From the NCBI GenBank assembly GCA_003345545.1, contig PRDH01000068.1, forward strand, positions 1-28,898: 28,898 nucleotides of DNA. The letters are read 5' to 3'. Positions within the stretch are counted from its first letter, which is position 1; each line of letters begins with the position of its first letter. Source of the DNA: Candidatus Thorarchaeota archaeon (GTDB lineage Archaea; Asgardarchaeota; Thorarchaeia; Thorarchaeales; Thorarchaeaceae). A model generated the notes under the pieces. That model was not told the DNA's origin, ran no database searches, and saw only the letters and a program-made list of their open reading frames with translations. The translations under genes and the position numbers were made by a program. This document shows, piece after piece, positions 6,511 to 23,307 of this stretch.

Positions 6511-7208
6511 TGTCAACAGTGGCACCACACAAGTTCGCTGGAGTATACACATCAACAGATGGAGAATACACTTCTCTCTCCACAAAGTCGCTGGTCCCAG
6601 GGGTCAGTGTCTATGGAGAGAAGCTTGTCAACGTAGGACAGGACGAGTTTCGTATTTGGTCACCAAGACGGTCCAAACTTGCAGCAGCCATAAAAAAGGG
6701 CCTAGCGGAGATGCCCATCCAGCCGGGCTCTAAGGTGCTGTACCTAGGTGCAGCATCAGGCACAACAGTGAGCCATTGTTCGGATATAGTTGGAAAGGGT
6801 GGTGTTATCTACGCAGTGGAATTTGCACCTAGAAGTGCAAGAGACCTGGTTCAGCTCGCTGCCTCACGCACCAATGTGATTCCGATTATCGAGGATGCAA
6901 GGCATCCTACACGTTACGCCCCGCTTGTGTCCGGCCCAATAGATGTCATCTACCAGGACGTAGCACAGCCAAATCAGGCGACTATTCTCTGTGAGAATCT
7001 CAAGACATTCTGCTCATTTGGAGCTTGGGGGATGCTTGCCATCAAAGCTAGAAGCATTGACTCGGCAACCAGTCTTGACAAGGTCTACAACAAGGAGATT
7101 GCAGAGCTTGACAGGAGAGGATTGGATGTCGTGGAGAATATCGATCTCGAACCACTAGAGAGAGATCACCGGTTCGTTGTATGCCGAGTGACGGAGGATG
7201 TGACTTGA
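6510..7208 (+). CDS. flpA: Fibrillarin-like rRNA/tRNA 2'-O-methyltransferase
   Basis: VYGEK, RSKLAAAI, VLYLGAASGTTVSH, AVEFAPR, DVAQPNQ and IKARSID motifs. TAATG coupling to nop5. Confidence 0.97.
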   Translation: MSTVAPHKFAGVYTSTDGEYTSLSTKSLVPGVSVYGEKLVNVGQDEFRIWSPRRSKLAAAIKKGLAEMPIQPGSKVLYLGAASGTTVSHCSDIVGKGGVIYAVEFAPRSARDLVQLAASRTNVIPIIEDARHPTRYAPLVSGPIDVIYQDVAQPNQATILCENLKTFCSFGAWGMLAIKARSIDSATSLDKVYNKEIAELDRRGLDVVENIDLEPLERDHRFVVCRVTEDVT

Positions 7209-7675
7209 GTCCATCGATAGACAGACTGATTGAACATGAAATTGACACTCTTAATGACCACCTCCCTGAGTCCAGAGTTACACTTCGGGAACTCTGCGAA
7301 ATGGACAAGCCATGTTTCAACACACGATGTGGAGAGCAATCGGTCTTCCGTGTTGAGGAGTTGGAGTGGCTTCGAAAGCAGGTTCCTGGGTTGTATCATG
7401 ACAGCGTACGGTTACCTATTGTGATTTTGAGGCGGCTCGACTATGGTCTAGGTGTATATACAGTAGCAGGCAACAAGATAGAGCTCTTCATGATTCACCG
7501 CATCCTAGGATATGTTGACCTAGAGTGGGAGGATTTTGCAGCATGGAAACCTGTTGAGCGCTTAGCTAGGCCACAGGTTCAAGTTCTCAGAAAGAGGATG
7601 CCTTCAACTTCATGTATCGGAATCGTGCATGCTACAAGGGAAGATGCAACAGAAGACTCGAAACCTGATGTATAA
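7205..7675 (+). CDS. DUF61 (UPF0216) family protein
   Basis: EIDTLNDHLPESRVTLREL, F..EELE and VRLPIVI motifs, plus 'QVQVLRKRMPSTS'. The likely TTG start at 7205 overlaps the fibrillarin stop. Confidence 0.75.
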   Translation: MSPSIDRLIEHEIDTLNDHLPESRVTLRELCEMDKPCFNTRCGEQSVFRVEELEWLRKQVPGLYHDSVRLPIVILRRLDYGLGVYTVAGNKIELFMIHRILGYVDLEWEDFAAWKPVERLARPQVQVLRKRMPSTSCIGIVHATREDATEDSKPDV

Positions 7676-7738
7676 TATGTTTTCACTATTAGATAATCTG
7701 AAAAGGATTTATTGTTGAACAGAAGCTGGTCGATGAAA

Positions 7739-8692
7739 ATGACTAAAGCCAGAACTCAACTAACACAGGAGATAATCACCCAGTTAGGTGAGGCTGGATT
7801 TAGCCTATCAACTCAGTGTGACGTACGGCCAAGCTGTTTTGATATGGTGGCCCGCAAAGGCGACCGGCTCTTGCTTGTAAAGGTACTATCCAATATCGAT
7901 GCCTTGACCAAGGAAGATGCAGAGGCACTGCAGCTAGTGGCCAACTTCTTCAGCGCCACTCCGCTGATTGTCGGTCACAAGACAAGGAAGGGACAACTTG
8001 ACGAGGGTGTAGTATACAAGAGACATGGGCTCTCTACTATCGCACCCCCAAGCCTTCAAGGTATGATTGCAGAGGATCGAATGCCCCGCGAATTCGCACA
8101 GAGAGGCGGTAGACTGGTAGCAATAGATAGTGCCAAGCTCAGAAAAGCACGTCTAGAGCGCAAGATGACTACCGGTGACCTTGCAGATTGTATTCAGGTA
8201 TCTGCGAGAGCTGTTCTTGCATACGAGAAGGATGAGATGGACGTCAGTATTGAAACAGCAGAGCGTCTTGAGGAAGTACTGGAAACAGACCTGATGATTC
8301 CTATTGATCTCCTCCGAGAGCAGGAGGAGAAGATGATGCCTCAGCAAGGCGCCCCGACAGACATGCTTGAACAGCGTGTGAACGAGTTCTTTGCAAGGCT
8401 TGGCATGAAAGTCCTCTGGACTGATCGTGCCCCATTCCATGTAGCAGCAAAAGAAACAGGTCCACCTCTGATATCAGGTGTGGGCTCGATAAAGAGCTGG
8501 AGCCTGAAGAAACGCATGGAGATTCTCAAGAGCGTTTCCAAGGTATCAGAGTCTGATGCAGTGATATTTGTCGAAGAGGGTCAGAGCGAAGAAACAGTTT
8601 CGAGTCTCCCGGTCATACGCCAGCTTGAACTTGATGCTATTGATAAACCTCGAGAACTCAAGAAGATCATTGCGGAGAGGTCCAGTGAGTAG
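7739..8692 (+). CDS. Archaeal HTH transcriptional regulator (COG1395-like, nuclease-like domain + XRE HTH)
   Basis: RPSCFDMVARK..LLVKVLSNID and an HTH segment LRKARLERKMTTGDLADCIQVSARAVLAYE. BRE/TATA (GAAAAGGATTTATT, 7700-7713) suggests a leaderless ATG at 7733 or 7739. Confidence 0.85.
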   Translation: MTKARTQLTQEIITQLGEAGFSLSTQCDVRPSCFDMVARKGDRLLLVKVLSNIDALTKEDAEALQLVANFFSATPLIVGHKTRKGQLDEGVVYKRHGLSTIAPPSLQGMIAEDRMPREFAQRGGRLVAIDSAKLRKARLERKMTTGDLADCIQVSARAVLAYEKDEMDVSIETAERLEEVLETDLMIPIDLLREQEEKMMPQQGAPTDMLEQRVNEFFARLGMKVLWTDRAPFHVAAKETGPPLISGVGSIKSWSLKKRMEILKSVSKVSESDAVIFVEEGQSEETVSSLPVIRQLELDAIDKPRELKKIIAERSSE

Positions 8693-16547: not shown

Positions 16548-17849
16548 ATAGGAACAGATTTCGACCAAAGCACAGCAAAATATGTCATCAGAGCAAGAAT
16601 GGAGATTGATGGCGTGGTCGATAAACCGGATGTCGTAGGAGCTGTCTTCGGGCAGACTGAGGGACTGCTTGGAGAAGACCTGGACCTACGAGAGCTTCAA
16701 CGCACTGGTCGTATAGGGAGAATTCAGATTGCCATTAGATCACAGGGCGGAAGCACTACAGGTGAGATCGTGATACCTGTATCGCTCAACAAGACTGCCA
16801 CTGCGATACTCGCAGCCGCCTTAGAAACTGTTGATCGGGTTGGTCCCTGTACAGCCAAAGTGATTCTTGAGAAGCTTGAGGACATTCGGGGCGCCAAGAG
16901 ACGAAAGGTTGTAAGCAGAGCAATCAGTATCTTGAAGGGCTGGGAAGAGGACATCTCCCCTGGCACTGAGGAGATAACCACCGCGGTCACAAAGGGGCAC
17001 AAGGTATCAGTGTCTAAGTACGGCCCCGATGGGCTACCCGCAGGTCCAGAACTGAATGGCAGCTCTGAAATCATCATCGTCGAGGGCCGCGCAGACGTCA
17101 TCAACCTCATGAAATGTGGAATAATGAATACAGTAGCAGTCGAGGGAACTCATGTTCCGAAGTCGATAGTCGAACTCACAAAGAAGAAAGGTAAGAGAGT
17201 GACTGCATTTCTCGACGGTGATAGAGGTGGAGACCTCATTCTACGAGAACTCATGCAGGTTGCTACCGTTCACTATATTGCCAGAGCACCTGAAGGCAAG
17301 GAAGTTGAGGAACTCACAAAGCGTGAAGTGATGAAAGCACTTCAGACTCAAATCCCTGCAGAACAAGCCTTGTCGCTAGTTCAGGATAAGAAGACTGCAA
17401 CAAGACCCAAGAAGTACGCTACAAGGAAGAGCATTCCCAAGAGTGCTGAAGAAAAGGCACGTAGTGAGCCAAAGGAGGTTGAGGGAACATCTCCAAAGAG
17501 AGAGAGAACCGCAACACCGATTGGTAGACCAACAGCAGCTCGGAGAGCACCCATATCTGTCGATGAGGCATATGTTTCGAAGATTAAGAGCATCAAAGAA
17601 GCCTTCAAAGCAGTCCTATTCAACGCAGACAAAGAGGTCATGGTTGAGTGCGGCGTCGCAGAGCTTGCCAAGAAGCTTGAGGAACAAGAAACTGTCCCAG
17701 CAGTCGTTTTTGATGGGGTGATAACCCAACGTCTAGTGGATATTGCAGCAAAGAAACAGACGACGCTCATCATTGGGGCAGCCATTGCGGACATTGAAAA
17801 CAAGCCGAGTGGTCTGAAACTTGTCACCTTTGACGATCTTGGCCAGTGA
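16548..17849 (+). CDS. dnaG: Archaeal DnaG (TOPRIM primase-like, exosome-associated); probable non-AUG start upstream of ATG 16599
   Basis: DGVVDKPDVVGAVFGQTEGLLG, LRELQRTGRIGRI, VEGRADV, FLDGDRGG and C-terminal FDGVITQRLVD motifs. The conserved TAKYVIRA segment lies upstream of the first ATG. Confidence 0.92.
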   Translation: MGTDFDQSTAKYVIRARMEIDGVVDKPDVVGAVFGQTEGLLGEDLDLRELQRTGRIGRIQIAIRSQGGSTTGEIVIPVSLNKTATAILAAALETVDRVGPCTAKVILEKLEDIRGAKRRKVVSRAISILKGWEEDISPGTEEITTAVTKGHKVSVSKYGPDGLPAGPELNGSSEIIIVEGRADVINLMKCGIMNTVAVEGTHVPKSIVELTKKKGKRVTAFLDGDRGGDLILRELMQVATVHYIARAPEGKEVEELTKREVMKALQTQIPAEQALSLVQDKKTATRPKKYATRKSIPKSAEEKARSEPKEVEGTSPKRERTATPIGRPTAARRAPISVDEAYVSKIKSIKEAFKAVLFNADKEVMVECGVAELAKKLEEQETVPAVVFDGVITQRLVDIAAKKQTTLIIGAAIADIENKPSGLKLVTFDDLGQ

Positions 17850-17879: not shown

Positions 17880-17913
17880 AGGTCGTGAAGCGTGCAAGAA
17901 CCGCTTCACACCT
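17880..17913 (+). other. Stable stem-loop downstream of dnaG
   Basis: AGGT-c-GTGAAGCG (9-nt loop) CGCTTCAC-ACCT forms a 12-bp stem with one bulge. Confidence 0.5.
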
Positions 17914-17977
17914 CGAATTTTCTCGAGTAATACTCACAATTATGTCATAGAAGCAGTGAGTCATCTACGGAGCAGAC

Positions 17978-19426
17978 GTGAGGCTCTCAACCTTGACATC
18001 GATTTTAGATGGACTGGAAACAACAGCACAGGTAGTAACACCAAAGAGCCCTTTTCAGAGGGTCATAGGTCAAGCGCACGCTGTGTCAATAGTACAGTCT
18101 GCCGTGAAACAAAGGCGGCATGTTCTCCTGTGCGGCGCCCCGGGAATAGGAAAGTCTATGCTTGCAAAGGCGGCCTATTCGCTCCTCAGTCCACCCAATC
18201 AGGAGATACGCCTTCGAAGGAATCCGTCCCAGCCAGACAGACCCATCGTCATAGTATCTGGCTCAGAGTATGAGCAGGCTACACAGAGTGCGGGCGATGA
18301 GCCTAGTTTTTCACTATATATGACACCTGATAGACTTCCAGTTGATATCTCTATCAAAATGGGGTATAGATGTCAAAAGTGTGGAAGTCTATCCGTGCCA
18401 ACAGATCCATTATGTCTAGACTGTGGAGCCGCGAAAAGATGTGACTGGTTGGGAAGCGATTCCTATCATGCTCTTTTCAGGATAATAGACGTCGTGAGAG
18501 AACCTGCCCTTCAGACCGTCACTAGCATTGAGAAGATAGCAGATTCTACGTACCATACGACCTATGAGAGGATAGGAGACACTGAGATCTCTGTAACCCG
18601 CCGAAGATTGGAAGATAGTACGCAGACTCCTCCGGAACAGAGAACTGATGCGGAGAGAGTCCTAGTGGCAAGAGAGGCATGCAGATTCATCAGAGTGAGC
18701 GGTGCAAGTCATGTTGAACTCCTTGGGGACGTCAAGCATGACCCATACGGTAGCGCTGAGTCACTCGGTATGGCAGCTCATCTACGAGTGATTCCAGGAG
18801 CTATTCATGAGGCACATGAGGGTGTCCTCTATATCGACGAGATTTCAGCTCTTGGTCCACACCAAAGCCACCTCTTGACTGCCATGCAGGACCACGTCTA
18901 TCCAATATCAGGACATAATCCTCTCAGCTCAGGCGCTGCAGTACGAGTGGATAACGTGCCCTGCGATTTCATTCTCTTTGCATCATGTAATCCCGAAAAT
19001 ATCGGTGCTATCCTACCAGCTCTGAGGTCTCGAATCCGGGGCTACGGATATGAGATTATGCTATCGTCGTGGATGAAGAAGAGTGTTGAGAGTGTCAACG
19101 ATATTATCAGATTCATTTCACAGACAGTCGAGGAAGATGGCAAGATACCGCACCTCACCGTCAAGGCTGCTGAAGAGGTGATAGCTGCTGCTGAAAAAAT
19201 GGCCTTTCAATATGATGGACAGAGAGATGCGCTCACACTGCGTCTTCGCGAACTTGGAGGCCTCATCAGAATAGCTGGAGACCTTGCTGTGCAGGACAAT
19301 GCAACGCTGATTCAGCCAGAGCATGTGAAGAAGGCAGGAGTGTTGAGCAGAGGTATTGACCTAGACGAGATGGTTTCTCACTCCTATGGAGCCCCAGAGA
19401 TGGCTAGCAGAAACTATTTCTTCTAA
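17978..19426 (+). CDS. LonB-type AAA+ ATPase lacking both protease domain and TM anchor, with Zn-ribbon insert
   Basis: VIGQ..A, Walker A GAPGIGKS, LLGDVKHDPY, PGAIHEAHEGVLYIDEI (Walker B), SSGAAVR...VPCDF, PALRSRIRGYGYE and LTLRLRELGGLIR motifs. CQKC/CLDC insert. The protein ends about 25 aa after the AAA lid. Confidence 0.88.
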   Translation: MRLSTLTSILDGLETTAQVVTPKSPFQRVIGQAHAVSIVQSAVKQRRHVLLCGAPGIGKSMLAKAAYSLLSPPNQEIRLRRNPSQPDRPIVIVSGSEYEQATQSAGDEPSFSLYMTPDRLPVDISIKMGYRCQKCGSLSVPTDPLCLDCGAAKRCDWLGSDSYHALFRIIDVVREPALQTVTSIEKIADSTYHTTYERIGDTEISVTRRRLEDSTQTPPEQRTDAERVLVAREACRFIRVSGASHVELLGDVKHDPYGSAESLGMAAHLRVIPGAIHEAHEGVLYIDEISALGPHQSHLLTAMQDHVYPISGHNPLSSGAAVRVDNVPCDFILFASCNPENIGAILPALRSRIRGYGYEIMLSSWMKKSVESVNDIIRFISQTVEEDGKIPHLTVKAAEEVIAAAEKMAFQYDGQRDALTLRLRELGGLIRIAGDLAVQDNATLIQPEHVKKAGVLSRGIDLDEMVSHSYGAPEMASRNYFF

Positions 19427-19453
19427 CGGCGGAATCTGTCCTGTGGTGACGCA

Positions 19454-20542
19454 TTGAAGATCCTGAAACGCATCCTCAAGGAAGGAACAATTGTCCTGAA
19501 GATTGAAACCTTGGATGATCTTTGGCACCTGTATAACACAGTTGGTTCCGGAGATGTGGTGATATCAAGGACTGTTCGCCGAGTGAGAGTTGGAGATGAG
19601 GAGAGTAGAAAACAGGATAGTGTCAGAAAACCTATGACACTGAAACTTCGGGTCGAGGATGTGGCATTTCACACCTTTACTAACCGTGTCAGGATTAAGG
19701 GCCAGATACTAGAGGGACCAAGTGACCTTGTGAGCATAGGATCGTATCACACAATAAACATTGAAACCGGCGACACGCTGACCATAGTGAAGGGCCACTG
19801 GCCAAAGTACATCTTGGATAGGCTTGAGGAGGCCACAAAGGACCGGTTACACTCTGTCTGTCTCATTGTTACCATTGAGGATGGCGATGCAGAGATTTTC
19901 CTTGCTGCAGACTACGGATTAAAGGAGGTAGTACGGGTACGAGCTAATCTCTCTCGTAAGAGGGGGGACCAAAAGGCATACGACTCAACGATGCATGACT
20001 TCTTTGTGGATGTCACTCTTGCAGTACGGTCTCAGCTAGAGCAGAGTCAGATAGGACTCGTAGTCTTGGCGGGGCCTGGATTTGTGAAAGATCATTTCAA
20101 GGACTATCTTGGCAAGGCAGGAATCAAGAACTTGCCTCCCATGGTTATTGAGGGTACGAACTCAATTGGCATTCCGGGTGCAAAAGAAGTGCTCTTCAGA
20201 GGCGTCATTGGAGAAGTCATAGATGAACTCAAGGTGGAAACCGAGACCAAGTTGGTGGAGAAACTTGTCGAGCACATATCGAAGGACAATGGGCTAGGAA
20301 GCTATGGTGACGAGCAGGTCGCCAAGGCAGTTCAATATGGAGCAGTTCAAGATCTGCTCATCACAGATAAGAAACTCAGAGAGGGCTCTGATGAGGTCAG
20401 ACGAGAGATGGACGACCTCATTCGAAACACCGAGAAGACGAAGGGAGCCATCCATATCGTATCGACAGACCATCCCGCAGGAAACCAACTCCATCGACTG
20501 GGCGGAATTGCAGCCATTCTTCGTTTTCGTATCGTAGAGTGA
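19454..20542 (+). CDS. pelA: Pelota (mRNA surveillance / ribosome rescue factor)
   Basis: ETLDDLWHLY, GSYHTI, AGPGFVKD, SYG...V..A.QYGAV.DLLITD and C-terminal GGIAAILRF motifs. TTG start after GGTGA. Confidence 0.96.
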   Translation: MKILKRILKEGTIVLKIETLDDLWHLYNTVGSGDVVISRTVRRVRVGDEESRKQDSVRKPMTLKLRVEDVAFHTFTNRVRIKGQILEGPSDLVSIGSYHTINIETGDTLTIVKGHWPKYILDRLEEATKDRLHSVCLIVTIEDGDAEIFLAADYGLKEVVRVRANLSRKRGDQKAYDSTMHDFFVDVTLAVRSQLEQSQIGLVVLAGPGFVKDHFKDYLGKAGIKNLPPMVIEGTNSIGIPGAKEVLFRGVIGEVIDELKVETETKLVEKLVEHISKDNGLGSYGDEQVAKAVQYGAVQDLLITDKKLREGSDEVRREMDDLIRNTEKTKGAIHIVSTDHPAGNQLHRLGGIAAILRFRIVE

Positions 20543-21664
20543 CTAGACAGGGTCGAACTGAATCTGAAGGCGGTCCCATGTTGGGTACTCATATGAAATG
20601 CCTATCTCCAACTCTCCGATGTTTTCAAGACTGCTCTTGATCTCTTCGGCACACTCCTCGAGAAGTGTTGGAGCCAACTCGATTCGCATTCGAATGATAT
20701 CAGTATTGATGAGATTGTTGGGAATCCCAAGCTGAACACTGAGAATACCACGAATATGCTGCAACTGCTGAAAACTCAGGCTGGACCCATGAGGAGCTCG
20801 AATGATTCCCAATACTAACAGGGGGTCTGTATCGTCACGTTCCTCAAACTCCCGGATGGTCTGCTCAAGTCTCCGTTCCAGCCGATTCCGCAACTGAATG
20901 GCATCCTTATAGCGTGCAGAACAGAAATGAACTGAGAGTCTGGTGAGACTATTCGCAGCCCACTCGACCACTTCTCTTGCTGTTTTGGCACTGCCCTCGA
21001 TGCTGGCACTTGCCATATCTGTCAACCGCATGCCCTGAGACAACAAACTCTCGAAATTAGTTTCGCTGGCCTCAAGCTCATTGATGTTGAGAAAAGAGGC
21101 TCCCACCTCTTCAGCTCGACGTGCGGTCTGCTTAAGCCTCTCCGCACTTCCAGGGACTGCTGGAACCTCCAACCCAACATCCATTCCAGTGGCTACTGCG
21201 AGCCCTATTCCACTCCAATCATCACTCTGAGGATGAAATCGAATCTCATCGAGTCCAGCCTCTCGTAGTCGTCGGAGGTCTTCTTGGCTGACTGAGGTCT
21301 TGCTTGTGTAGAGATGAATATGAAAATCTGGGCCATACTTAGACTTCAGAAGATGGATGTATTCCACTGTTCGGTCTAGAGCGCAGAGTGGATCGCCACC
21401 ACTCATTCCTGCACCTTCACCCTTTATTGCATCGACCTCGAAGAGAATATCGTCTTCAGTGGAAACTGGAAGCTCATCTGCAAATACGACATCCGTACCT
21501 GCTTTCTCCTGAGAGAGAGGGCAGTAGTAACAGGAACTATCGCATAAACCAGTGACAAACAGCACCATCTTTGACCCTCTGGCACAGAACATGCAACCTC
21601 GTGGCAGTTCTCCCACAAGAAATGACCCACCTTGATGCTGCTCAATCTCACGGGTCATTGTCAT
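20543..21664 (-). CDS. Radical SAM protein, COG2108-like uncharacterised archaeal family
   Basis: LPRGCMFCARGSKMVLFVTGLCDSSCYYCP (CxxC + CxxxCxxC), SGGDP, HIHLYT, GLDEIRFHP, LNINELE and HFCS..YKDAIQ motifs. Confidence 0.85.
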   Translation of the reverse strand: MTMTREIEQHQGGSFLVGELPRGCMFCARGSKMVLFVTGLCDSSCYYCPLSQEKAGTDVVFADELPVSTEDDILFEVDAIKGEGAGMSGGDPLCALDRTVEYIHLLKSKYGPDFHIHLYTSKTSVSQEDLRRLREAGLDEIRFHPQSDDWSGIGLAVATGMDVGLEVPAVPGSAERLKQTARRAEEVGASFLNINELEASETNFESLLSQGMRLTDMASASIEGSAKTAREVVEWAANSLTRLSVHFCSARYKDAIQLRNRLERRLEQTIREFEERDDTDPLLVLGIIRAPHGSSLSFQQLQHIRGILSVQLGIPNNLINTDIIRMRIELAPTLLEECAEEIKSSLENIGELEIGISYEYPTWDRLQIQFDPV

Positions 21665-22374
21665 CGCCTCCTTCCTTGTCGACGATCAATTGTACGGCGA
21701 AGAGCAGGATCATTGTCTTGGAGTTGCTTCGTGACTTCCTCGAAACTCTCTGACTCCTCTAGGGAACGCTTGAGATAGACACCAGTTCTACCTACACTAT
21801 CACGGCGTGTCAGTACTCGCACTCTCTCTTTGGCTATTTCGGTACTGACTGAAAGCCTCTTGGCAATCTCCTGCTCATGACCAATTACTCCATGTTCTGT
21901 ATGGCCGTATGGAGCCGGTTCTATTAGAACCAGTCTCTTATTCACCCCAGGCACTCTCTCATCGGACTCGAGGCCCTTCAGATCTATAGCTCCGCCCCAG
22001 TGGTAGAACTCTTCCTCTCTCGGTCTGAGTTTGAACATCGGAAAACTGACAACAGTGTTGTCTTCGAGATGAAGATGGCCCTTCAGGACCATCGACGGCG
22101 TTGCCTGTACCAGCTCTCTCTGCAGAGAAGGACCAAGGGCCAACTCTAGGCGATAACTGGAAACGGGCTGGCGAATAATGATGTCGATGTCAGATGATTC
22201 TGACACATCGCCTCGGGCGAGGGAGCCATGCACCAAGGGCCGGACAGCAATGGATGATTCAATCTTGTGCATGATGTCGATGGCACGCTGCCGCAGCCTA
22301 TTCAGAAGATGCCAATGGGCTTCATCATATGTGACAACCCTGACGTCGTGCAGTACCTCCGGTCGCCTTGCCAT
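21661..22374 (-). CDS. Pol-beta superfamily nucleotidyltransferase (COG2413-like)
   Basis: HGSLARGDVSESSDIDI, QATP, EEEFYHWGG, RVPGVNKRL and ERVRVLTRRD.VGRTGVY motifs. Confidence 0.85.
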   Translation of the reverse strand: MARRPEVLHDVRVVTYDEAHWHLLNRLRQRAIDIMHKIESSIAVRPLVHGSLARGDVSESSDIDIIIRQPVSSYRLELALGPSLQRELVQATPSMVLKGHLHLEDNTVVSFPMFKLRPREEEFYHWGGAIDLKGLESDERVPGVNKRLVLIEPAPYGHTEHGVIGHEQEIAKRLSVSTEIAKERVRVLTRRDSVGRTGVYLKRSLEESESFEEVTKQLQDNDPALRRTIDRRQGRRR

Positions 22375-22383
22375 TCTGCATCA

Positions 22384-23307
22384 TCACCTGATCGTATCCA
22401 GCATCTCACAGGCTTTACATATTCTTGTTGAGGAGGGACTACCACATTTCTCACACGACATGAGCTTCCACTCTTGTCGAGATTCCCTGAAAGCAGATAC
22501 TATCGCCTCAGATGACCGTAGGATTGCCAGCAGTGTGCCAGGACGTCTGTACTCCGCGTCGTTTAGGAATGCCCTTACATCATTGCGATAGGCATCGTTC
22601 GCATATGGACATGGTATATCGTGATAGGGAAGACTGAGATGGTGAGAGTAAGTGACAATATCACGTTCTGTTAGTTCCGTCAGAGGTTTGACACGCGGAA
22701 CAAACCCCTGCGTGGGCTGCTCTCGGGACACGTTTGTTCTCGCAATTCTTGGACTATCCCCTCGCATGAGATTCATGAGCACGGTCTGTGCTTCATCATC
22801 AAGATTATGGCCTGTTGCAACTACGCTTGCCCCCAGTTCCTGTGCAGCAGTGTTAAGGGCACGTCTTCGAAGAACACCACAATATGAGCATGCACCCAGC
22901 GAACTTGATGGCTTACGTTGTACTATCTTGTCAAGAGAATAGCCAAATAGCTTCCTAAAGGAGAACACTTCGAGAGTAAGATCCAATGAACGAGAGAGCT
23001 CTCGAGCTGACTCAAGAGACTTGTCCCGATACCCTCTGACTCCTTCGTCGATGGTGACGGGAACAATCTCGGACTTAGGAAAAGCACTCTCTATATTGTG
23101 AAGTATATGTAGAAGAGCTGCGCTGTCCTTTCCACCAGAAATGGCCACCAGAATTCGGTCGCGCTCTAGGAACATCTTATGTCGATTGATGGTCCTTCGT
23201 ACGCGATCCACTGTCGTCTGAACTAGACATGAACCGCACAGCTGTTCTGATGTATACCTACGCAAGTAAATGGCAGGTTTTCCACACTTTGAACATTCTG
23301 GTTGCAT
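22384..23307 (-). CDS. tRNA 2-thiolation protein (TtuA/Ncs6/Ctu1 family, TIGR00269-like)
   Basis: N-terminal CxxC...CxxC, PP-loop SGGKDS, IDEG, CSYCGVLRR, ATGHNLDDEAQ, CPYA and C-terminal CxxC...CxxC. Confidence 0.9.
   Translation of the reverse strand: MQPECSKCGKPAIYLRRYTSEQLCGSCLVQTTVDRVRRTINRHKMFLERDRILVAISGGKDSAALLHILHNIESAFPKSEIVPVTIDEGVRGYRDKSLESARELSRSLDLTLEVFSFRKLFGYSLDKIVQRKPSSSLGACSYCGVLRRRALNTAAQELGASVVATGHNLDDEAQTVLMNLMRGDSPRIARTNVSREQPTQGFVPRVKPLTELTERDIVTYSHHLSLPYHDIPCPYANDAYRNDVRAFLNDAEYRRPGTLLAILRSSEAIVSAFRESRQEWKLMSCEKCGSPSSTRICKACEMLDTIR

Follow-up and report, generated by a model that had tools for sequence, protein, structure and literature searches.

The 482-aa protein encoded upstream of pelota in the analysed window (the whole 28,898-nucleotide stretch of Candidatus Thorarchaeota DNA) is an intact representative of an ancient archaeal family of single origin, which arose from the AAA+ module of LonB. 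In this family, the membrane hairpin has been exchanged for a Zn-ribbon domain, and the Ser-Lys protease domain for an aromatic-ended tail that is modelled as flexible. Literature searches on the LonB/Asgard, HbYX/Lon, and DnaG/Lon themes retrieved no description of this family, which is apparently unstudied.

Architecture and origin of the protease-less LonB family

The first-pass annotation of the window described a protein with intact LonB AAA+ motifs and no Ser-Lys protease domain, and the profile and motif analysis confirmed this description. The NCBIfam LonB model (TIGR00764) matched the protein with 325.2 bits, below the curated cut-off of 516.6. Because the match covered only positions 5-84 and 169-402 of the 608 in the model, the region of the transmembrane (TM) hairpin and the protease domain are both missing. 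Coherently, no Pfam match to Lon_C (PF05362) was found in the 482-aa protein. The LonB-type AAA+ module is present with its Walker A, Walker B, sensor, and Arg-finger motifs (Table 1; sensor-1 is N338), and the alignment of the homologues showed that these motor motifs are invariant across the family. The two-helix membrane anchor between Walker A and Walker B is absent (TIGR00764 positions 85-168 are unmatched), and its position is occupied by a hydrophilic Zn-ribbon domain, the maximum hydropathy being low among the members carrying the ribbon. If translation began at the alternative TTG codon at 17993, the protein would have 477 aa, a length shared by many homologues.

Table 1. Position of the LonB-type gene, its motifs, and the adjacent genes in the window
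Feature	Coordinates	Strand	Description
dnaG (archaeal Toprim DnaG, exosome subunit/primase)	16599..17849	+	immediately upstream; NF003108, 466 bits vs cut-off 300
Protease-less soluble LonB-type AAA+ ATPase gene	17978..19426	+	482 aa, GTG start, C-terminus ...EMASRNYFF followed by the stop
Walker A GAPGIGKS	18134..18157	+	residues 53-60; G53, P55, G56, G58, K59 invariant in alignment
Insertion domain in place of LonB TM hairpin	18230..18682	+	residues 85-235; Zn ribbon and three-stranded beta-meander
Zn ribbon CQKC-x10-CLDC	18371..18424	+	residues 132-149; four Cys invariant in alignment
Pore-loop-1 region GDVKHDPYG	18725..18751	+	residues 250-258; aligns to GDVRHDPFQ of T. onnurineus LonB
Walker B VLYIDE	18824..18841	+	residues 283-288
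LRSRIRGYGYE, Arg-finger region	19022..19054	+	residues 349-359; R350 invariant, R352 nearly invariant
LTLRLRELGG, sensor-2 region of lid	19232..19261	+	residues 419-428
C-terminal linker and tail	19346..19423	+	residues 457-482; linker variable, hydrophilic; S-R-N-Y-F-F at 19406-19423
pelota (aPelota/Dom34 homologue)	19454..20542	+	TIGR00111, 282.6 bits vs cut-off 177.65

The closest known system is archaeal LonB (TIGR00764; T. onnurineus, PDB 3k1j and 4zpx; MEROPS S16), with which the protein has in common the AAA+ alpha/beta and lid domains, the full set of nucleotide motifs, and a pore loop with an aromatic residue. In sequence and structure comparisons, phmmer gave an E-value of 1e-74 to 3k1j and 4zpx, and Foldseek a TM-score of 0.89 (normalised by target) to the ATPase domain of 4zpx. 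Unlike LonB, the Thorarchaeota protein has a Zn-ribbon domain in place of the TM hairpin, no Ser-Lys protease domain, and a short, probably disordered aromatic tail after the lid; moreover, it belongs to a separate clade and scores below the family cut-off. The second-best structural match was LonC of Meiothermus taiwanensis (PDB 4fw9), which is also a Lon variant left with a single one of the two activities of Lon. LonC, however, retains the protease and lost the ATPase activity, and the protease-less family is its converse.

The AlphaFold2 (AF2) monomer model of the 482-aa protein had a pLDDT of 82.5. Its final helix stops at about residue 468, and the pLDDT falls below 50 for residues 468-482, consistent with a disordered, flexible tail. 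From the homology to LonB, the protein would be expected to form hexamers. The insertion domain, folded alone, reached a pLDDT of 73; a structure search of the PDB with this model returned nothing at E ≤ 0.001, and the fold gave no functional lead.

In the phylogenetic tree, all the 27 sampled protease-less forms were grouped by one bipartition (support 99/95) with the canonical LonBs outside, and the Thorarchaeota protein was placed among the protease-less forms, separately from canonical LonB. Homology to the family is collinear over the whole length of the protein, including the insertion domain, in which the CxxC-x(n)-CxxC pattern is invariant; the Zn ribbon was found in 118/118 non-Thor representatives. 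Members of the family occur among Asgard archaea in the Thorarchaeota, Jord/Frey-like, and Heimdall-labelled lineages and, outside Asgard, in Aciduliprofundum boonei and other Thermoplasmata, in the Methanomassiliicoccales (Thermoplasmatota), in Korarchaeota, and in the Anstonellales (DPANN).

A truncated protein would be expected to have close relatives with a full-length Lon. This possibility, raised at first pass, was ruled out, because the 120 nearest homologues all have a length of 475-536 aa (with Lon_C in none of them), whereas the match to full-length LonBs is limited to residues 232-471, with ~47-51% identity. More generally, we rejected the interpretation of the gene as a decayed or truncated LonB or a pseudogene, considering that the family is monophyletic and that its length and motifs are conserved across phyla. 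That the gene is a decayed LonB, or half of a split Lon whose protease domain is encoded elsewhere, is hardly conceivable: the missing domain, and nothing more, speaks for it, but pelota begins too soon to leave space for a remnant, and the genome has no Lon_C. Indeed, the gap of 27 bp between the stop of the LonB-type gene and the start of pelota bears out the earlier statement that a frameshifted protease remnant is impossible, and a six-frame search for PF05362 found no match in the source genome (92.9% complete). In the phylum sample, PF05362 was detected in 6/43 Thor-family genomes, only as weak matches in unrelated proteins of ~800 aa, and in 0/5 and 0/6 genomes of two further carrier families. 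With no Lon_C in the source genome nor in 37/43 genomes of its family, a separately encoded Lon_C partner was also ruled out.

Conservation of the C-terminal tail

The open reading frame does end in EMASRNYFF, as annotated, and the proposed conservation of a penultimate Tyr or Phe was borne out by the C-termini of the homologues lacking the protease. Position -2 is F or Y in 230/238 family cluster representatives (120 Thor-type and 118 non-Thor), compared with a background of 5.7% among the 1606 ORFs of at least 200 aa in the source genome; the background for the full operational HbYX motif (see below) is 3.4% in the same genome. At position -3, the 238 representatives mostly carry G, L, M, or Y. 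In the Thor-type tails, compared across the 120 closest homologues, the linker is variable and no exception to D(-4) or Y(-3) occurs; F occupies position -2 in 108/120 sequences (Y in 12/120) and position -1 in 114/120 (L in 6/120). The non-Thor tails mostly end in G-Y-x, L-Y-G, or M-F-x, with F or Y at -2 in 110/118 and Y in 101/118; the A. boonei protein (WP_008084136.1), for example, ends in ...DGYQ, and a Jord/Frey-type protein in ...SLYG. A non-aromatic tip, D-V-R, occurs in the Anstonellales, and the tail is absent in P0165 and P0187.

The first-pass annotation considered Y-F-F an HbYX-like tail, and this claim stood in part. The tip agrees with the operational definition used by Forouzan et al. 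2012 (PMC3493965), in which position -3 holds a residue that is small or hydrophobic and position -2 holds Phe or Tyr (R-Y-G tails depart from it at -3), but not with the strict motif at the free C-terminus (hydrophobic residue, penultimate Tyr, any residue), having Phe at -2. The non-Thor relatives, mostly with Tyr at -2, conform to the strict motif. In the solved HbYX complexes, the hydroxyl of the penultimate Tyr bonds the carbonyl of alpha-Gly19, and the bridging distance matters for gate opening (PMC10349142). Phe carries no such hydroxyl and, since Tyr sits at -3 and Phe at -2, the Thor D-Y-F-F tip is predicted to be unable to make the canonical Tyr-OH to Gly19 bond. Furthermore, MAFFT aligned the terminal D-Y-F-F of the Thor tails with an internal Y-N-Y-W-N of the Thermoplasmatota tails and not with their terminal G-Y-x; the Thor and HbYX-type tips may therefore not correspond to each other. 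The predicted complex between three copies of an alpha subunit of the same genome and the C-terminal 45 residues of the protein scored 0.02, which gives no answer and is evidence in neither direction.

The source genome encodes 20S proteasome subunits (two alpha and two beta genes, for a total of four PF00227 genes), PAN, and two Cdc48; the last three proteins end in M-Y-C, G-Y-M, and M-Y-G, all with Tyr at -2. PAN is present in nearly all the carrier genomes and its distribution is not complementary to that of the LonB-type family, so this comparison is uninformative. A proteasome alpha gene of the source genome adjoins an open frame which, read by eye, encodes a putative exosome subunit Rrp4.

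Gene neighbourhood

The deep and recurrent gene partner of the family is dnaG, not pelota. A same-strand dnaG gene was found upstream in all the Thor-family loci, in a Heimdall-labelled lineage, in Aciduliprofundum, and in P0124, P0184, and P0411. In at least four deep lineages it immediately precedes the family gene, which it overlaps by 4-8 bp in three, and the stop and start codons of the two genes sometimes overlap. The neighbours of the family genes are mostly nucleic-acid enzymes (dnaG, Hjc, EndA, XPB, and AP endonuclease); apart from dnaG, each was found in a single lineage, except for Hjc in two related ones.

The adjacency to pelota, from which a link to ribosome rescue had been proposed at first pass, held within the Thor family and failed in the other lineages examined. 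The order dnaG-lon-pelota, with gaps of ~27-30 bp, is kept in all the Thor-family loci examined, down to ~50% Lon identity. Conversely, a search of ~5 kb around the gene revealed pelota in none of the non-Thor lineages examined (Jord/Frey-like, Heimdall-labelled Asgard, Aciduliprofundum, Anstonellales, and Korarchaeota). Pelota was consequently rejected as a family-wide partner, its adjacency being confined to the Thor family.

Possible function of the family

Archaeal 20S proteasomes work with PAN, Cdc48, and AMA, which are all classical AAA proteins. The LonB-type family has a conserved aromatic tail tip like these ATPases (Forouzan et al. 2012, PMC3493965) and could share with them a ring-type unfoldase architecture and the flexibility of the tail; most of its members end in a small or hydrophobic residue followed by Tyr-X. 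It differs from them in belonging to the Lon-type AAA+ clade, in lacking an OB or N-domain of the PAN/Cdc48 type, and, for the Thor subgroup, in ending in Y-F-F with Phe penultimate; docking to the 20S is here a candidate property only. Another comparable system is the HslU of bacterial HslUV, a member of the HslU/ClpX/Lon/RuvB group without its own peptidase and with an intermediate domain inserted in the AAA module. The hydrophobic tail at the C-terminus of HslU activates a peptidase of the proteasome-beta type. Unlike the HslU system, no HslV is encoded in the source genome, where the PF00227 genes are the alpha and beta ones described above, and the inserted domains are unrelated.

On these sequence grounds, we consider it possible, if somewhat short of probable, that the protein is a soluble Lon-type unfoldase that passes substrates to a partner docked on its tail, plausibly the 20S, and that its ancestral context is DnaG. 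The protein would form a soluble hexameric unfoldase unable to degrade substrates itself, and would hand them to a separate partner reached via the C-terminal tail. The partner would most plausibly be the 20S proteasome, with the tail reaching the pockets between alpha subunits, so that the protein would join PAN and Cdc48 as a proteasomal ATPase. The ancestral functional context would be DnaG, either in the exosome or as primase, and the dnaG-lon-pelota operon would be a Thorarchaeota-specific extension, which may, but need not, tie the protein to the rescue of stalled ribosomes. The architecture and motor motifs, the single origin of the family, the absence of Lon_C, the presence of 20S genes, the conservation of the tail tip beside a variable linker, the recurrent dnaG-lon pair, and the putative Rrp4 frame beside a proteasome alpha gene favour this reading. 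Against it stand Y(-3)/F(-2) in the Thor tails, their alignment with an internal motif of the Thermoplasmatota tails, the lineages without an aromatic tip or without a tail, the nucleic-acid neighbours and, further, the Tyr at -2 of PAN and both Cdc48 in the same genome.

The recurrence of dnaG opens a different reading, which we judge somewhat unlikely: the protein would be an autonomous AAA+ remodeller or chaperone that is linked to DnaG (as RNA exosome cap or primase) and works with no protease, and the tail would bind DnaG, the exosome, or an adaptor, or would regulate the ring in cis. The dnaG-lon pair is the sole neighbourhood recurring across deep lineages and is often translationally coupled, the conserved internal Y-N-Y-W-N indicates that the tail holds more than a terminal tripeptide, and the Thor tips depart from strict HbYX. 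However, the tip is conserved also where the adjacency to dnaG is lost (the L-Y-G and R-Y-G lineages), and we know of no precedent for DnaG binding by C-terminal tails of this kind. In addition, tails that finish in G-Y-x or L-Y-G behind an acidic linker are the hallmark of 20S docking (PMC3493965). The nucleic-acid neighbours (dnaG, Hjc in two related lineages, XPB, AP endonuclease, and EndA) could otherwise suggest, together with the Zn ribbon, a RuvB-like motor of the HslU/ClpX/Lon/RuvB clade, acting with DnaG and Hjc on DNA or RNA and binding nucleic acid through the ribbon. This is very improbable: the core and the pore loop, which retains its aromatic residue, are closest to the protein-translocating LonB 4zpx (the TM-score normalised by target given above), the neighbours besides dnaG are limited to single lineages, and the docking-type tail is left unexplained.

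The same tail evidence that favours the 20S model, added to the dnaG-lon-pelota order kept in the Thor-family loci, would also fit a 20S-coupled unfoldase acting with pelota in ribosome-associated quality control and pulling nascent chains from split ribosomes. We regard this version as improbable, since the order is confined to one family, in which synteny is largely inherited, and pelota is not near the gene in the other lineages examined. Operons of mixed function are, moreover, common among archaeal housekeeping genes.

If the proposed coupling to the 20S is correct, a Lon-type motor that traded its own peptidase for a proteasome-docking tail would represent an evolutionary switch of protease partner, and the family would be a new class of regulators in the archaeal proteasome network. 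As it also occurs in cultured or model-adjacent organisms (Aciduliprofundum boonei and Methanomassiliicoccales), the hypothesis is directly testable with existing reagents. The linkage to dnaG offers a new way of approaching what DnaG does in archaea, which is poorly understood. The genomic association of exosome and proteasome genes has long been noted in archaea. As a long shot, the family could be a fourth, Lon-derived class of proteasomal ATPases that physically couples RNA decay by DnaG and the exosome (and, in Thorarchaeota, rescue by pelota) to the 20S. It would then be the missing protein link behind that association, as well as an analogue, in the archaea most closely related to eukaryotes, of the ribosome quality control driven by Cdc48.

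Lastly, canonical LonB appears to be entirely missing from Thorarchaeota, as it is from the Jord/Frey-like lineages, and one may ask which protein carries out membrane protein quality control there.

LonB-type motor core of the protein encoded between dnaG and pelota

The best family match of the 482-aa protein (see table) is the LonB model TIGR00764, with 325 bits against a model cut-off of 516.6 bits. Only positions 5-84 and 169-402 of the 608 model positions are covered, thus neither the membrane hairpin nor the protease domain is present; Pfam likewise found no Ser-Lys Lon protease domain (Lon_C, PF05362) in the protein. All the motor motifs are present, and they are invariant or almost so throughout the family: Walker A (GAPGIGKS), the pore loop (GDVKHDPYG, which pairs in the alignment with GDVRHDPFQ of the T. 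onnurineus LonB), Walker B (VLYIDE), the sensor-1 Asn, LRSRIRGYGYE, and LTLRLRELGG. Model coverage, motif alignment, and Pfam therefore confirm what the first-pass annotation had observed, namely intact LonB AAA+ motifs in a protein without a protease domain.

The stretch from residue 85 to residue 235 is a hydrophilic insertion that carries an invariant CxxC-x10-CxxC zinc ribbon. The AF2 model (pLDDT 82.5) has a confident AAA+ core, whose top structural matches are the T. onnurineus LonB structures 3k1j and 4zpx (TM 0.89, normalised by the 4zpx target), and a disordered stretch of 15 residues at the C-terminus.

Features of the dnaG-lon-pelota region (window positions)
Feature	Position	Strand	Details
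dnaG, archaeal	16599-17849		NF003108, 466 bits; precedes lon
Inverted repeat	17885-17922		GTGAAGCG...CGCTTCAC, then T-run; in the 128-bp dnaG-lon spacer
lon (protease-less LonB-type ATPase)	17978-19426	+	GTG start; 482 aa; C-terminus ...EMASRNYFF
Alternative lon start	17993		TTG; gives 477 aa, the annotated form of many homologues
pelota	starts 27 bp after lon		TIGR00111, 282.6 bits
Radical-SAM gene	20543-23307	-	convergent on pelota

Extent and phylogeny of the family

All of the 120 nearest cluster representatives measure 475-536 aa and none carries Lon_C (0/120), thus relatives with full-length Lon, which the first-pass annotation had named as evidence of recent truncation, were not seen among them. 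In the maximum likelihood tree of the AAA+ core, which is unrooted and built on rows hand-picked from search matches, 27/27 protease-less rows group together in a single bipartition (99/95), and the 21 canonical LonBs lie outside it. These lengths and this bipartition exclude a truncated LonB. As judged from sequence comparison, the protease-less LonB is an old family and not a truncation.

In a sample of 201 genomes from the phylum, the protease-less form occurs in four families, including 42/43 genomes of the Thorarchaeota family (hereafter, Thor family). Proteins of the three further carrier families share 39-44% identity with the subject protein across its full length; the remaining families have canonical LonBs of 640-690 aa, matching residues 232-471 only. 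Representatives at 50% identity were searched exhaustively and then with a profile, which added Aciduliprofundum boonei (WP_008084136.1), many Thermoplasmata, Methanomassiliicoccales, Korarchaeota, and Anstonellales, as well as proteins that carry Frey-, Jord-, or Heimdallarchaeota labels. The family lacks an NCBIfam model, and its members are named “ATP-binding protein”, “AAA family ATPase”, or “Lon protease family protein”. Literature searches found no published description of it; the survey of C-terminal hydrophobic-Tyr-X (HbYX) tails in archaeal ATPases was limited to classical AAA proteins.

Elsewhere among archaea, membrane LonB is reported to be nearly universal. Across the phylum sample, the distribution of Lon_C is nearly complementary to that of the protease-less form: the domain is wholly absent from 37/43 Thor-family genomes, the other six (6/43) having only weak matches in unrelated proteins of ~800 aa, and it was found in 0/5, 0/6 (two other Asgard families), and 2/3 genomes of the further carrier families. 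Such ~800-aa Asgard proteins (e.g., at G134:C16, G146:C58, and G011:C31, the G-numbers denoting genomes) give weak partial matches (E ~1e-9, model positions 108-200), are frequent in one Asgard family (18/19 genomes), and represent a different Lon-like protein.

The labels on near-identical proteins assign the window to Thorarchaeota. The window's own genome (2.69 Mb, 92.9% complete) contains no second LonB-like gene, and the search for a stand-alone Lon_C gene suggested by the first-pass annotation returned none in any frame. A split Lon gene is thereby excluded.

Gene neighbourhood of lon

Wherever the flanks reach, dnaG, lon, pelota, and the convergent radical-SAM gene are kept together (~37 Thor-family loci, down to ~50% Lon identity). 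The radical-SAM gene, found in the same position in all Thor-family loci, is tightly clustered with a nucleotidyltransferase and a TtuA-like tRNA thiolase. The inverted repeat and T-run of the dnaG-lon spacer may be a terminator or attenuator, in which case lon and pelota may have a separate promoter.

Outside the Thor family, the recurrent neighbour is dnaG, on the same strand and directly upstream of lon. This was seen in 2/2 loci of the Heimdall-labelled lineage, in the A. boonei type (4-bp overlap), and beside proteins P0124 (same strand), P0184 (4-bp overlap, after a split Toprim gene), and P0411 (8-bp overlap). Since these carrier lineages do not all lie on the same side of the protease-less clade, gene order suggests that the pairing is probably ancestral. 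It was lost in the Jord/Frey-like lineages, where the upstream neighbour is EndA or a Zn-ribbon gene and the downstream one a methyltransferase, and likewise in Anstonellales, Korarchaeota, and a tail-less group. In the L-Y-G and R-Y-G lineages (loci L055 and L053), one or two Methyltransf_11 genes follow lon, and the gene before it encodes the tRNA-splicing endonuclease EndA or a small Zn-ribbon protein.

The C-terminal tail and its candidate partners

Thor-type tails (n = 120 representatives) have a freely variable linker and a fixed tip: D(-4) and Y(-3) never vary, position -2 holds F (108) or Y (12), and position -1 holds F (114) or L (6). The subject protein itself has N instead of D at -4, and the tip of deeper Thor genera reads G-[DS]-Y-F-[FL]. 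Among 118 non-Thor representatives, the penultimate residue is Tyr in 101 and Phe in 9, the usual endings being G-Y-x (mostly G-Y-Q), L-Y-G, R-Y-G, and M-F-x. Overall, 230/238 representatives have F/Y at -2, compared to 5.7% of the 1606 long ORFs of the own genome (3.4% for the full operational HbYX motif), thus the conserved penultimate aromatic residue that the first-pass annotation proposed to look for is indeed present. The operational motif is the HbYX assignment rule of Forouzan et al. 2012, which asks for Phe or Tyr at -2 after a small or hydrophobic residue at -3 (PMC3493965). One caveat comes from the HbYX complexes that have been solved: there, the hydroxyl of the penultimate Tyr bonds the Gly19 carbonyl, and the bridging distance counts for gate opening (PMC10349142), whereas the Thor-type Phe cannot form this bond.

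The own genome encodes two alpha and two beta 20S subunits, one PAN (with the C-terminus M-Y-C), and two Cdc48 (G-Y-M and M-Y-G); PAN and Cdc48, the bona fide activators, have Tyr at -2, whereas the subject protein has Phe. PAN is present in nearly all carrier genomes, so the protease-less LonB would supplement it and not substitute for it. The second alpha gene (own genome, G000:C15, ~7027-7860), with no ATG ahead of the conserved N-terminus, comes before an S1/KH Rrp4-like gene, which was recognised by eye in the translation. An alpha gene followed by an Rrp4-like gene is the classical archaeal exosome-proteasome superoperon arrangement, and the pair fits the gene association reportedly described by Koonin and colleagues in 2001.

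The most likely reading, which we hold tentatively, is that the subject protein would be a soluble hexameric unfoldase whose tail would dock on a separate partner, the 20S alpha ring being the best candidate; if so, it would be a Lon-derived proteasomal ATPase. Archaeal DnaG is a cap subunit of the RNA exosome (PMC3672285, PMC4227792), and the main alternative, somewhat unlikely, is a remodeller associated with DnaG and the exosome that uses its tail for another interaction. The full ribosome-rescue reading is improbable and would be lineage specific: the synteny with pelota proposed as a check holds in the Thor-family loci, but pelota was never near lon within the non-Thor flanks examined (3.5 to ~6 kb). 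A nucleic-acid motor is less likely, in view of the tail and of a pore loop that resembles that of LonB. The interpretation of the first-pass annotation, a proteasome-coupled unfoldase tied through pelota to ribosome rescue, is thus supported in part.

Two further caveats to the HbYX comparison concern the tails of other lineages. Thermoplasmatota and Heimdall-labelled tails have a second, internal aromatic motif, Y-N-Y-W-N; in Thermoplasmatota (P0417-P0529), (P)Y-N-Y-W-N lies ~8-12 residues upstream of the terminal G-Y-x. MAFFT pairs the Thor terminal D-Y-F-F with this internal motif, not with the distal G-Y-x, and the Heimdall-labelled proteins of loci L061/L062 stop at the internal motif itself (...N-L-W-N-G). 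A few lineages have a non-aromatic tip (D-V-R) or no tail. A divergent tail-less subgroup (contigs of proteins P0165 and P0187; 442-443 aa) adjoins a DEAD helicase, a Fic gene, or an integrase of phage type, and not dnaG, possibly a mobile or defence context.
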